Below, piece after piece: positions 36,001 through 48,000 of a DNA stretch of 64,000 nucleotides. Made by a program: the position numbers. Each line of letters begins with the position of its first letter. The stretch's first letter is position 1. The DNA is from Escherichia coli (GTDB lineage Bacteria; Pseudomonadota; Gammaproteobacteria; Enterobacterales; Enterobacteriaceae), in the NCBI RefSeq assembly GCF_002854065.1, contig NZ_CP024147.1; one strand, written 5' to 3'.

Positions 36001-39000
36001 GCGGCAACGGTGGCGGTGATTCAGGACGCCCTAAACTCTTGTGGCTTACCGGCGGGTGCCGTGCAGGCGATTGATAATCCTGACCGTGCGCTGGTCAGTG
36101 AAATGCTGCGTATGGATAAATACATCGACATGCTGATCCCGCGTGGTGGCGCTGGTCTGCATAAACTGTGCCGCGAACAGTCGACGATCCCGGTGATCAC
36201 AGGTGGTATAGGCGTATGCCATATTTATGTTGATGAAAGTGCAGAGATCGCTGAAGCCCTGAAAGTAATCGTCAACGCGAAAACCCAGCGTCCGAGCACA
36301 TGTAATACGGTTGAAACGTTGCTGGTAAATAAAAACATCGCCGATAGCTTCCTGCCCGCATTAAGCAAACAAATGGCGGAAAGCGGCGTGACATTACACG
36401 CAGATGCAGCTGCGCTGACACAGTTGCAAGCAGGCCCCGCGAAGGTGGTGGCGGTTAAAGCGGAAGAGTATGACGATGAGTTTCTGTCATTAGATTTGAA
36501 CGTCAAAATCGTCAGCGATCTTGACGATGCCATCGCCCATATTCGTGAACACGGCACACAACACTCCGATGCGATCCTGACCCGCGATATGCGCAACGCC
36601 CAGCGTTTTGTTAACGAAGTGGATTCGTCCGCTGTTTACGTTAACGCCTCTACGCGTTTTACCGACGGCGGCCAGTTTGGACTGGGTGCGGAAGTGGCGG
36701 TAAGCACACAAAAACTCCACGCGCGTGGCCCAATGGGGCTGGAAGCACTGACCACTTACAAGTGGATCGGCATTGGTGATTACACCATTCGTGCGTAAAT
36801 AAAACCGGGTGATGCAAAAGTAGCCATTTGATTCACAAGGCCATTGACGCATCGCCCGGTTAGTTTTAACCTTGTCCACCGTGATTCACGTTCGTGAACA
36901 TGTCCTTTCAGGGCCGATATAGCTCAGTTGGTAGAGCAGCGCATTCGTAATGCGAAGGTCGTAGGTTCGACTCCTATTATCGGCACCATTTAAATCAATA
37001 AGTTACCTCGCATTTAAGTAAACTACGTTCTCCTCTTGTGCCGTATTTGTGCCATTGCGACTTATAATCGCATCGATTTTGCTCGCGTGCTCGGTGAGAT
37101 GCCCGGCTGAAAGGTGGGCGTATCTTTGAACCATTTCGAGAGTTTCCCATCCTCCCATCTCTTTAAGCGCAAGAAGAGAGACACCGGACTGAACCAGCCA
37201 GCTTGCCCAGGTATGCCTCAGGTCATGGAAGCGGAAGTTGCTAATGCCTGCCCGCTTTAACGCTCCCTTCCATGCCTTGTTGCTGTCGGTTCTCATCTTC
37301 CTTACCGCTGCTGTTTTTGTTCCGTCGCTTCGGTAGGCAGGTTTGGTGTGGACAAATACCCATCTCTTATGGAGCCCCTGCTGTTTTCTTAATATCTGGC
37401 ATGCGGTTTCGTTAAGAGGAACTCCGATCGCATTGCCAGCTTTTGTTTCATCAGGGTGCATCCATGCCATTTTCTTATCCAGATCGACCTGTGACCACTC
37501 AAGGTCTGTAACGTTGGAACGGCGAAGGCCTGTCGTGATTGCAAACATGACCACAGGGAAGAAATGAGGAGCAATTTCTGCAAACAGGCGCTTCGATTCC
37601 TCCTCTGTAAGCCATCTGATTCGTCCATTCTTAACGCGTGGTGTTGATATTTTGGGCGTCCTGTCAAGCCATCCCCATTCAACAGCCATATTGAGAATAG
37701 CGCGAAGTATTGCCAGATGCCGCGTCTTCGTTCCTTTGCTTGCCAGCTTTGGTTTATACTCCGGCACTGGCTTGCCAAGCCGCAAACACCTGTCCCGGCT
37801 CATCTCCCAGTTCAGGCGATGGCGGCGGTTTTCCATCCCGTCTACCGCCTCCATTATTTTTTCTGTTGTTATGTCAGAGAGAATGGTTTCTCTGAAGTGC
37901 AACATCCAGAACGATATAATGCTCTTGTCATCATCAATGGACTTCTTATCCGATTTCTCACGCAGCCACCGTATGCAGGCTTCCTTGAATAGCTTTTTCG
38001 GTGATTCCCCGAGATTTTTTACTCTCCACGCTTCTGCTTTCAGACGATCGTGAAGTTCTTGCGCTTGCCTTTTGTCCGATGTTTCAAGAGAGCGTCTAAC
38101 TCTTGATCCATCTGGCGCGACGAAATCGCAGTGCCACGTGCCACCGCGTAGTTTGATTGACATGCTTTAACCTCCTGCACATCAACCGCATTCACCGCGC
38201 TATTGTGTCTCACAGACTTAAGCGCCGCAATGCAGTCTGACTTGCAAATGCGATATGGGCTTTTAGGTTTATCTGGATTTATCTTTGCGGCCTGAAGTCG
38301 TCCACTTCGTATCCACTGTGTGATAGTGCCTTTGTCTACCTTCAGATACGACGCAGCTTCTTCACGAGTGAAGATTTCTTCTTCCACCTGGAATCTCCAT
38401 TTGTTGGATTGACATGATTGCGGTAGGTCTGGATATCTTGAGAAATGAACAGGCCTCATCGAGTGTGAGGCTGTATGATTCCATGGTTACCTCTGCTTTT
38501 TGAACGCATGTCACGTAACTTCTTAATGTGTTCTGCCGTTTCGATCTCTTCTGCTATCCGATCTGCATCAGCTTTATTCACAGGTTCAAAGTCATGATTA
38601 AAGCGGAACATGCTGGCGATACATGTTCTGCCTTTACGGATGTAGTGAACTTTGTTGTGGGTAGAACGCAGGATTTTGCAGGGAGTGCCGTGGTGGTCAA
38701 CGTACCAGGTGTTAGGAAAAATGATTCTGAACATTTTTACACCTCAGTTGGACGATGTTGAAATTTGCTGCTTTGAGGCCATCACAATCCCCATTGTTTG
38801 TTCTTAAGTTCGATCTCCTCCTGGCAACTTGCACAAGTCCGACAACCCTGAACGGCCAGGCGTCTTCGTTCATCTATGGGATCGCCACACTCACAACAAT
38901 GAGTGGCAGATATAACCTGGTGGTTCAGACGACGCATTTTTATTGCTGTATTGCGCTGTAATTCTTCGATTTCTGATGCTGAATCAATGATGTCTGCCAT

Positions 39001-45000: not shown

Positions 45001-48000
45001 CTGCAAAAAGCTGCTTTTGACGCACTTACCAAAGCAGGTTTCTGGCTGGATGATGTTCAGGTCGTTGATTACCGTGTTGTGAAGATGCCCGTTACCAAAG
45101 GTGGGAAGCTGGAGCTGACCATCACTGAACTGGGAGATGAATGATGTTTGAGTCTTATATGGCAGAACGTCTTCGCCGCCGCTGGGTGCGCCTGCACTTA
45201 TATCATTTTCCCGGTTCTGTTTTGACCGATTACCGAATACTGAAGAATTACGCCAAAACCCTGACAGGAGCAGGAGTATGAAGTCAGAGATAACAATCAA
45301 CTAATACTGTTTTGTTGATTTTTGCTTGTAATTGGCGTTCTGGTCTGATTTTTGTGGAGTAAGTTGATGCGTGATATTCAGATGGTTCTTGAGCGTTGGG
45401 GAGCGTGGGCGGCTAATAATCATGAAGATGTGACCTGGTCGTCCATTGCCGCCGGTTTTAAGGGATTAATTCCTTCAAAAGTAAAATCTCGCCCACAATG
45501 TTGTGACGATGACGCGATGATCATTTGCGGGTGCATGGCCCGTCTGAAAAAGAACAACAGCGATTTGCATGATTTATTGGTGGACTATTATGTCGGCGGC
45601 ATGACTTTTATGGCGCTTGCACGTAAGCATGGGCGATCTGATTGTTGGGTTGGCAGGATGCTCCAGAAAGCTGAGGGCGTAGTGGAGGGTATGCTGATGG
45701 TGTTGGATCTCCGATTGGAGATGGATGCTGATTGTTCGAAATAATTAAAGGAAAAGTTGCTGTCTGATTGTCATTAGTCTAACATTTTAAATGTTGGAAT
45801 CGCAACGTAGTTATTATCATATAACAGCTTGTTTCCTGATTTAGCCAGCCTCCCCAAAGGCTGGTTTTTTTCTAATAAGTATCATTTCGGGTAGGGATTT
45901 TATTGTTTAACCCATAATAATTCATTGACATTGAATCCCAACTTTTGAGCGGTTCGCACATAGTCTGCTTTTACTTTATCTGGAATAGTTGAGGTCCTTG
46001 CCAGAATCCATAGGTATTCTCTGTTCGGACCACTGACAAGAGCATACTTATACTCATCATCCAGTTTGATTACATTATAGCCACCATAGAAGGGGCCAAA
46101 AAACGAAACCTTCAACGCTGCAGTTTTAGTATCTCCAGTAAAGTATGCTTTACCTTCGCTCTCGCTCCATTTATTTTTCGTTGGATCGTATCCACGGTTA
46201 AGTACACGAATCCCTCCGTCGTTCCGTTTTCCATAAGTAGCGCTGACCTGTTCCAGACCACGTTCGAACCGGTTCTCGAGGCGAGCTATTTCATACCATT
46301 TTCCGAGGTAGCGGTTGGCGTCAAAATTTGTAATCGGCTGCACACCTTTAGGTGGTGTCGGGGCCTTACATGCTATAAGAGTGAAAGAGAGCGCAATGCC
46401 AGTCAACACAGGCCATAACTTCATAATAAATCCTGTACTTTTGATAGTTGAGAGTAAGTATGAAAGATAGATGATTACGACCGATCACTTAAAGAACTTT
46501 CATACTATATTAGGAATAGTCCATAACAGAAAAATTGTCAGTGATGACGCCAGAAAGGCAATTTATTCCGTGCACTACACAGTTTATGTGTTAATGAATT
46601 AGTCAAGGGGGAGGATATGATAAAAAAACCTGTGATTGGAATCAGCGGTTGTTTGGCCGGTTCTGCTGTTCGTTTTGATGGTGGTCACAAAAGAGCTGAC
46701 TTTTTAATGGACAAATTAGTGGAATGGGTAACATTCAGACCAGTATGTCCGGAAATGGCTATAGGGCTGCCAGTTCCGCGTCCTGCTCTACGTCTTGTGC
46801 GCTCGACGCAAGGAAATATACGGATGTGTTTCAGCCACGACCAGAATGAGGATGTGACAGAGAGAATGACAGAGTTTAGTCGTTCTTATATGGACAAATT
46901 AAAGGATGTATCGGGGTTTGTGGTTTGTGCTAAATCTCCCAGCTGTGGCATGGAGCGCGTGCGTGTCTATGATGAAAATGGTAATCGAGGTCGTAAAGAT
47001 GGAGTGGGACTATTTACGAGCACTTTGATGGAAAAGTTTTCCTGGCTACCGGTTGAAGAGGATGGGCGATTACATGATCCAGTGCTTCGTGAGAATTTTG
47101 TTGAAAGAGTTTTTGCTTTGCATGAGCTCAATCACCTTTACAAGGAGAAATTATCAAGAAGAGAGTTATTGGCTTTTCATAGTCGTTATAAGCTTCAGTT
47201 GTTGGCGCATAGTCAGACAGGCTATAAAGATATGGGACCATTTGTGGCTGCAATACACGAGTGGGCGGATCTTGAATCATACTTTGAGGTGTATCGTGAT
47301 AAGCTGATGGCGATTCTCAGAAAACCTGCATCACGTAAAAATCACACGAATGTGCTGATGCATATACAGGGGTATTTTAGTAACTACTTAAGTACACGCC
47401 AGCGTAAAGAGTTGAGCGAGGTTATACTTAACTATCGTTCTGGCACATTACCTCTTCTTGCGCCGTTGACTCTGCTGAAGCATTATCTGGGTGAGTATCC
47501 TAATGATTACTTGCTTACACAGAATTACTTCGATCCCTATCCGGACGAACTGGCTCTAAGACTGATGGTAAATTAATTGTATGCGATATCATCCAAAAGG
47601 ATGAGTTCCTGCATACAGGATATTTACAATCGTAAAAACTACACTATGATACCCAGAGTGTCAGTTTGTATAAAAACTCTGTTTACGCTGAAGAAACCAT
47701 TGAGATGCAACTTAAATTTGGTAAACATGCCAGTCAAAATATATGATATTATGATTCCACGCAGCTATATATAATATAACAGATTGGTGGTAATGACTCC
47801 AACTTATTGATAGTGTTTTATGTTCAGATAATGCCCGATGACTTTGTCATGCAGCTCCACCGATTTTGAGAACGACAGCGACTTCCGTCCCAGCCGTGCC
47901 AGGTGCTGCCTCAGATTCAGGTTATGCCGCTCAATTCGCTGCGTATATCGCTTGCTGATTACGTGCAGCTTTCCCTTCAGGCGGGATTCATACAGCGGCC

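Follow-up and report, generated by a model that had tools for sequence, protein, structure and literature searches.

A mosaic lambdoid prophage remnant at thrW of Escherichia coli and its likely reduction by IS1

The thrW element among the described prophages

The closest described analogue of the element that we report here is DLP12, a prophage of Escherichia coli K-12 located at argU. In DLP12, a P22-type integrase gene, intD, stands next to the tRNA gene and overlaps xis, the early region is disrupted by insertion sequences (IS), a ybcN-ninE-ybcO-rusA-ylcG-quuD block is present, and cargo (nmpC) lies between Q and the essD holin gene. Here we analyze a stretch of 64,000 nucleotides (nt) of E. 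coli contig NZ_CP024147.1 (assembly GCF_002854065.1), referred to in its whole length as the window, in which positions 36943-50391 are very probably occupied by a cryptic, that is defective, mosaic lambdoid prophage that entered thrW by means of a P22/IntD-type integrase and was later reduced by IS1. The surviving parts are attL, int and xis; the distal portion of the leftward early operon, comprising a TraR-like gene, a Dam methylase gene, exo-bet-gam and a kilR-like gene; a nin block with rusA and a QuuD-type Q; and three cargo genes in the usual place between Q and the holin gene.

The element shares with DLP12 the type of integrase (54% amino acid identity to IntD) and its overlap with xis, the IS-disrupted early region, the ybcN-to-quuD block (93.8% identity at the DNA level) and the location of the cargo. 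Whereas DLP12 contains only a fragment of exo and keeps essD, rrrD, rzpD and nohD, the window has a complete Red but no longer has the holin gene or any prophage gene past it; its cargo genes encode a lipocalin, a YbgA-family protein and an AraC-family regulator in place of nmpC. The early-left operon of phage lambda is likewise recognizable, with Red at 97.5% DNA identity over 2.0 kb, an additional 0.59 kb at 97.3%, and homologues of orf60a, orf61 and the TraR-like gene. However, the int, xis, kil, nin region and Q of the window are not those of lambda, a Dam methylase gene replaces orf63, and the window lacks the DNA that should lie upstream of kil (the place of pL, N and cIII in lambda, with no search aimed at pL or N themselves), cI and cro, O and P, and all late genes. 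With P22, the element has in common the attB site in thrW, an identical 46-nt core, Int (54% identity), Xis (42%), a 124-nt overlap of int and xis and the same catalytic residues, but only this integration module is P22-like, the sole other P22 match being a weak one to NinE. As for Rac, a KilR-family inhibitor survives in the window, and the deleted segment, as found in intact relatives, had YdaS/YdaT-family genes next to an S24 repressor gene; unlike Rac, the window has lambda Red instead of recET as its recombination module and uses a different attachment site. The mosaicism is real: int and xis are P22/DLP12-like, the segment from orf73 to gam is lambda-like (97% at the nucleotide level), kil is KilR/Rac-like, and the nin-Q block is DLP12-like.

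Several other genomes carry relatives of the element. Strains A3 and 100416, the closed genome CUWW06 and a 4.7-Mb contig of an NCTC strain (UGBN01) have relatives at thrW that share 97-100% DNA identity over the common parts and belong to the same lineage. A3 differs from the window in carrying a complete prophage: genes for lysis, terminase and lambda-like heads and tails are present, and attR is an exact 46-nt repeat of the thrW 3' end. Another full-length relative, in strain 01G17CRGN001 (L004), is a lambdoid prophage located at lambda attB. The blocks that remain in the window are collinear with both of these full-length relatives and with strain 100416, which gives a lambda-type gene order.

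An initial annotation made from the sequence of the window had described a defective mosaic lambdoid prophage at thrW with an intact-looking Red module, and the direct comparison with 100416 and A3 supports that description, the agreement going far beyond chance. It had also held that the immunity and late regions are absent, a claim that a contiguous copy of either one elsewhere would have contradicted. With the immunity block of 100416, the late regions of A3 and 01G17CRGN001, lambda and P22 as blastn and tblastx queries, we found no immunity (repressor/cro), O/P or late-region homology elsewhere in the window; the tblastx matches outside the element are short linked chance fragments. All gene calls of that annotation hold, except for two labels (ninB and N) and the right-hand end. 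Since only a single att site is present, excision should be impossible, and since there are no repressor, replication or late genes, the element should be incapable of induction, replication, lysis and particle formation. The missing attR makes the element defective, and its membership in the lambdoid family stands.

Loss of DNA at IS1-A and IS1-C

By self-blast, the window carries three complete 768-bp copies of IS1 that are 99-100% identical to one another and all lie within 8 kb. Their ends read GGTAATGAC... and ...GCATCACC, and the annotation of CUWW06 names them IS1B. The copy that we call IS1-A (42197-42964, transposase on the minus strand), delimited by self-blast and by its flanks, AGACTTCTG and TCTGGGTTG, has no target-site duplication. 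Strain 100416 is 100% identical to the window over 36970-42196 and 99.94% identical over 42965-46514, and in between, at the position of IS1-A, it carries 5,604 bp that encode Ren, P, an O-type replication protein, a YdaT-family protein, a YdaS/Cro-like regulator and an S24 (cI-like) repressor, along with two cargo genes for a DUF6932 protein and a hypothetical protein of 310 amino acids (aa). The draft genomes L008 and L013 have the same arrangement as 100416 at this site. IS1-A stands exactly at the former immunity and replication region, and with its YdaS/YdaT genes the immunity region that was lost resembled that of Rac and not that of lambda. The initial annotation had IS1 standing in place of N, cI, cro, O and P. 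The S24 repressor, the YdaS/Cro-like regulator, O and P are indeed found there in 100416, but N had been assumed from lambda and is not evident in this closest intact relative, as no plausible N-like open reading frame (ORF) is present in the 483 bp upstream of kil in 100416. The event at IS1-A would thus have removed the whole Rac-like immunity block together with the lambda-like replication block (5.6 kb), and the early promoters would have been lost along with it, judging from the layout of lambda and not from mapped promoters.

In intact relatives, variable two-gene cassettes follow the repressor gene at the position equivalent to that of lambda rexAB (40682-42084 in 100416; also in L008, L013 and L012). 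They encode the DUF6932 protein and the 310-aa hypothetical protein, a DUF3037 protein and a HipA-family kinase (01G17CRGN001), or an ASCH protein and a 353-aa protein (L012), and are possibly defence cargo. All of these are deleted in the window.

At the right end, IS1-C (49624-50391, plus strand, 768 bp) is inverted with respect to IS1-A and IS1-B and also has no target duplication. Homology to the 01G17CRGN001 prophage stops at 49623, directly past the ribosome-binding site of the holin gene and 2 nt short of its ATG. On its right, IS1-C adjoins DNA that matches K-12 from position 311820 onward, in the intergenic region between ecpR (matA) and ykgL, and the two sequences are collinear from there. 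In A3, the sequence beyond attR continues with paoDCBA, yagU, ykgJ, ecpEDCBA-ecpR and ykgL. The A3 late genes, attR and the host genes from pao to ecp are all missing at the junction in the window. Beginning at the initiation codon of the holin gene, the event at IS1-C would have taken attR and all genes for lysis, packaging, heads and tails, as well as approximately 15 kb of host DNA that contains paoABCD, yagU, ykgJ and the whole ecpRABCDE common pilus operon. The initial annotation had ended the element at 45744, the end of Q; the homology runs about 3.9 kb further, to the IS1-C deletion junction at 49623.

The host segment that is absent at 50392 corresponds to positions 17071-31900 of the A3 sequence (L017) and 297206-311819 of K-12.

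Because the flank past IS1-C is in the K-12 orientation, this junction indicates a deletion, not an inversion that relocated the late genes. An inversion between IS1-A and IS1-C was considered and rejected, as there are no reciprocal target duplications and both the intervening segment and the outer flank are collinear with the relatives and with K-12.

IS1-B (47789-48556, minus strand) differs from the other two copies. It is a simple insertion with a perfect 9-bp target duplication, CAGATTGGT, at 47780-47788 and 48557-48565, and the alignment to the 01G17CRGN001 prophage overlaps across it by exactly 9 bp. It may be a later or unrelated insertion into the cargo block. The lack of a target duplication at IS1-A and IS1-C, as opposed to IS1-B, suggests later deletion or recombination, and not that these two copies are something other than IS1.

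Three near-identical 768-bp repeats within 8 kb are the kind of sequence that can collapse in an assembly and falsely join distant flanks, in which case the missing DNA would really be present, and the right junction of IS1-A has not been seen in another assembly in the form that it takes in the window. We nevertheless regard such an artefact as extremely unlikely. CUWW06 and NCTC UGBN01, which are independent assemblies, show the same left junction of IS1-A, the same IS1-B insertion with its duplicated target and the same two IS1-C junctions, and past IS1-C the window follows the order of K-12.

These same two genomes, which are 99.9-99.99% identical to the window and share all three IS1 copies, bear on the course of the reduction. 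Both have the same left junction of IS1-A, but they resume at 43627 and so have 662 bp fewer than the window (42965-43626). A flank that becomes progressively shorter beside an IS end that stays fixed is what adjacent deletion promoted by IS1 classically looks like. The shared left junction and the additional 662-bp loss point to stepwise erosion. The prophage of strain 100416 still has the immunity and replication genes, but past the lipocalin gene it is cut short by IS5/IS1.

An integrase at a tRNA gene, few genes and no capsid genes would also be expected of a naturally small integrative element, such as a satellite or an island resembling the phage-inducible chromosomal islands, that never had structural genes, and a true P4-like satellite does occur at the same tRNA gene in CUWW06. 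It is hardly conceivable that the thrW element is of this type, given that gene order and sequence on both sides of each IS1 match full lambdoid prophages, that its boundaries are IS1 copies lacking target duplications and not att sites, with no attR, and that it has none of the satellite hallmarks (a primase, a packaging-redirection gene, its own repressor).

In CUWW06 (L001; 1824-12000 and 12866-14198), the P4-like satellite, which encodes an integrase, an Icd-like protein, a P4-family primase and SSB, lies between thrW and the prophage remnant. Its insertion leaves a second, degenerate version of the thrW 3' end, and the prophage integrase gene is split by an IS2. The lineage is rich in IS elements. 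Elsewhere in the window there are two identical inverted copies of a 1,258-bp IS3-family element (positions listed as 9315-10572 and 25926-27826), one of them abutted by a truncated IS1 (25926-26568), and a 377-bp repeat with 96% identity at 6671-7047 and 10975-11351. Judging from CUWW06, these repeats may sit in what is there a decayed type VI secretion/Rhs region and near yafP.

Gene content of the surviving blocks

The gene thrW (36913-36988, plus strand), which encodes tRNA-Thr(CGT), was identified with ARAGORN and by an Rfam tRNA score of 71.8 bits. It is the sole tRNA gene in the window, and an Rfam scan of 36500-51000 for other structured RNAs returned only the tRNA. The final 46 nt of thrW (36943-36988) form the attL core and, when aligned, are identical to the core region of P22 attP. 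This sequence, which is repeated exactly as attR in A3, is present in a single copy in the window. We searched the window for a second thrW 3' end with a 25-mer allowing up to three mismatches and with 15- to 46-mers allowing up to two substitutions, and matched thrW alone, in agreement with the earlier observation that no attR repeat is present.

After a gap of 14 nt (not 15, as first noted) follows int (37003-38163, minus strand), which encodes an apparently intact tyrosine integrase of 386 aa of the P22/IntD type (PF00589, E 9e-35). Over 380 aa the protein shares 54% of its residues with P22 Int, and its identity to IntD is likewise 54%. In an alignment with the lambda, P22 and IntD integrases, the catalytic R, K, H, R, W and Y are all conserved, with W at the position of lambda H333, as in P22 and IntD. 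By its homology, its predicted catalytic residues and the thrW core beside it, this is a P22-type thrW integrase, as the initial annotation had it. The excisionase gene (38040-38459, minus strand; HTH_17; phrog_2907, E 6e-52; TIGR01764) shares 124 nt with int, the same overlap as in P22, and its product has 42% identity to P22 Xis; this is the xis-like gene that had been called. An integrase and an excisionase gene thus lie beside an att core at a host site, as in a lambdoid prophage.

The leftward early operon, all of it on the minus strand, continues with genes for a DUF4222 protein (38456-38734; PF13973, E 2e-19; phrog_285) and a TraR/DksA-type zinc-finger protein (38782-39000; PF01258). 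By tblastn, the latter is 90% identical to translated lambda 30401-30613, which we take to be lambda orf73. A small hypothetical protein of 71 aa (39099-39314; phrog_303), annotated as hypothetical in the relatives, is related to the lambda orf61 region (94-100% by tblastn). The next gene encodes a phage N6-adenine DNA methyltransferase of the Dam family (39391-39948; PF05869, E 5e-56); it occupies the place of lambda orf63, and DNA homology to lambda is broken between 39394 and 39946. Both the TraR/DksA-like and the Dam-like assignments had been made in the initial annotation and are borne out by these matches. A DUF1317 protein (39941-40111; PF07026) is the homologue of lambda orf60a, with 90% identity by blastp.

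The Red genes follow in the order gam-bet-exo with respect to transcription. Using lambda J02459 as the reference, we found that Exo (Red alpha; 40102-40782; 226 aa; PF09588, YqaJ) is 98.2% identical to its lambda counterpart, with four substitutions, and retains D119, E129 and K131 of the catalytic center. Bet (Red beta; 40779-41564; 261 aa; PF03837, RecT) is 99.6% identical, the sole change being A255T, and Gam (41570-41866; 98 aa; PF06064, E 1e-64) is 96.9% identical, with three substitutions. At the DNA level, identity to lambda is 97.5% over 2,003 bp, and a further 591 bp spanning the TraR-like and orf61-like genes is 97.3% identical. The initial description of these proteins as essentially identical to lambda Red was accurate. 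Upstream of gam lies a gene for a KilR-like FtsZ/cell-division inhibitor of 68 aa (41942-42148; phrog_294 Kil, E 1e-37; NF008465 FtsZ inhibitor, below cut-off), which is KilR-type and not lambda Kil; PF27398 (KilR) is recorded for an identical protein. The gene retains its ribosome-binding site, and IS1-A lies 48 nt upstream of it.

On the other side of IS1-A, the plus strand begins with a leftover of the interval from ren to nin (42965-43693; 100% match to 100416) that contains two hypothetical ORFs (43023-43331 and 43490-43693; 102 and 67 aa). These ORFs have no match in Pfam, NCBIfam or PHROG. The segment is found in 22 of 5,426 complete E. coli genomes, and no match to 42965-43700 was obtained in the phage collection. 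The nin block (43779-45281, plus strand), for which the CUWW06 annotation was also consulted, consists of a ylcH-like gene (43779-43880), a ybcN/ninB-like gene (43877-44332), ninE (44332-44502; Pfam NinE), ybcO (44495-44785; Pfam YbcO), rusA (44782-45144; Pfam RusA) and ylcG (45141-45281). Together with Q, it corresponds to K-12 DLP12 ybcN-quuD. The product of the ybcN/ninB-like gene scores 274.8 bits with NF007281 and matches phrog_72 (NinB/Orf, E 8e-52), but scores only 22.4 bits with Pfam NinB (PF05772), under the cut-off of 23.8, and has no blastp match to lambda NinB. It is best classified from these scores as a protein of the YbcN subfamily, a distant relative of NinB at the equivalent position. 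Of the nin region as first annotated, ybcO, rusA and Q stand, and the gene called ninB is to be relabeled as a YbcN-family gene.

The Q gene (45367-45744, plus strand) encodes an antiterminator of 125 aa of the QuuD/PF06530 type (E 2.5e-51) that is 88% identical to K-12 QuuD; it has no match to lambda Q and is not lambda-type. A consensus scan found a promoter-like site that overlaps the end of Q (45716-45745) and, about 100 nt further on, a hairpin with a 9-bp stem and a T-run (45843-45876). By its position, this stretch (45716-45876, plus strand) looks like a candidate late-promoter/terminator module of the pR'/tR' kind. Alternatively, the hairpin could be the terminator of the convergent lipocalin gene.

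Beyond Q lie genes for a Blc-like outer-membrane lipocalin lipoprotein (45900-46424, minus strand; NF007786, 313.5 bits, above cut-off; PF08212; phrog_2809, E 1e-98), a YbgA-family protein with a 2-thiouracil desulfurase domain and DUF1722 (46617-47576, plus strand; PF04463, PF08349; phrog_3275, E 4e-227) and an AraC-family regulator of the YdeO/AppY-like type (48705-49436, plus strand; PF12833, PF00165; phrog_1450, E 2e-107). The regulator is 32% identical to DLP12 AppY and is the last gene left before the holin position. All three proteins are full-length members of PHROG families without known function. The prophage of 01G17CRGN001 has the order Q, lipocalin, YbgA, AraC-like, essD (holin), rrrD, and the window is 97.6-99.0% identical to it over 43694-49623, broken only by IS1-B. 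Given this order, the three genes after Q are prophage cargo and not host DNA. That no gene after Q looks like a lysis or structural gene, as first stated, is true, but the genes found there belong to the prophage.

In the draft genome L008 (13780-20456), P2-like genes (Ogr/Delta, gpD, gpU, tape measure, tube and sheath) directly follow the YbgA gene, which suggests that a P2-like prophage or satellite has inserted into, or recombined with, the interval from Q to the holin gene.

Expression, retention and significance

IS1 is now what lies upstream of both kil and the ren-to-nin interval. No upstream early promoter would be left for Red, as all of the DNA beyond IS1-A (5.6 kb in 100416) is gone, and the lost region would be expected to have held the early promoters of both exo-bet-gam-kil and nin-rusA-Q. 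We infer that the Red genes are intact in their coding sequences and essentially silent, with at most weak read-through from the co-oriented promoter of the IS1-A transposase gene. A scan for an outward or hybrid promoter at the junction of IS1-A and kil gave only a promoter-like site internal to IS1, and inspection by eye found only weak hexamers. The extents of the deletions may reflect what the cell can tolerate. Given the established physiology of lambda, a cell would be expected to survive without the repressor only when kil and O/P-dependent replication have also been deprived of their promoters.

Could the remnant instead be domesticated, so that selection maintains Red, RusA or the cargo genes and their expression, driven for instance by read-through from IS1-A or by a hybrid promoter, adds to the recombination or repair capacity of the host? 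IS insertions activate rusA in K-12 DLP12, which offers an analogy. In the window, exo, bet, gam, rusA, int and the Dam gene are all full-length, the Exo catalytic residues are kept, the IS1-A transposase gene is co-oriented with kil-gam-bet-exo and lies 48 nt from a kil gene that has a ribosome-binding site, and the same remnant is present in at least three genomes. We nonetheless consider domestication improbable. The 99.9-100% identity to intact relatives argues for recent decay, in which intact ORFs need no selection; the junction of IS1 and kil has no convincing outward promoter; expression of a KilR-like division inhibitor would be harmful; and the sister genomes are still losing DNA, as seen in the additional 662 bp and in the IS2 within int of CUWW06. 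A more specific version of this idea, in which the element is a "locked-in" recombination island whose kilR-gam-bet-exo and/or nin-rusA genes receive low constitutive transcription from IS1-A, has in our judgment an equally slim chance of being correct. If it were, Red and RusA would give the lineage a recombination capacity of its own, and the trimming in steps would represent selection that sheds the toxic parts and keeps these genes.

Some points weigh against the reading of the element as a lambdoid prophage that decayed through IS1 and fell silent. The exact configuration of the window, in which IS1-A is followed by the 662 bp that its sisters lack, comes from this one assembly and occurs in no other genome that we retrieved; the junctions could be due either to IS1-promoted adjacent deletion or to homologous recombination between two IS1 copies; and that the Red, nin and Q genes are probably silent is deduced solely from the loss of upstream DNA and a weak promoter scan. 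Nothing that we found contradicts the decay scenario.

The remnant is an ordinary case, in which the usual mosaicism of lambdoid phages is combined with the usual IS-driven decay of prophages, and its kind is already well known. Our literature search found no publication that describes this thrW remnant, and the genome paper on E. coli W lists no thrW prophage for strains W, B and Crooks. The remnant is already present in public genomes with routine annotation. The value of the analysis therefore lies mainly in annotation, in that the limits of the prophage are corrected to run from the thrW core to IS1-C and not to Q. In addition, the locus is a cleanly resolved example of the stepwise trimming of a lambdoid prophage by IS1, of which the sister genomes capture three successive stages. 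A single deletion would have cost this strain not just the late genes of the prophage but also host DNA, namely the pao genes and the ecp operon for the E. coli common pilus. The intact native Red module that remains could be relevant to recombineering or recombination studies in this strain lineage.

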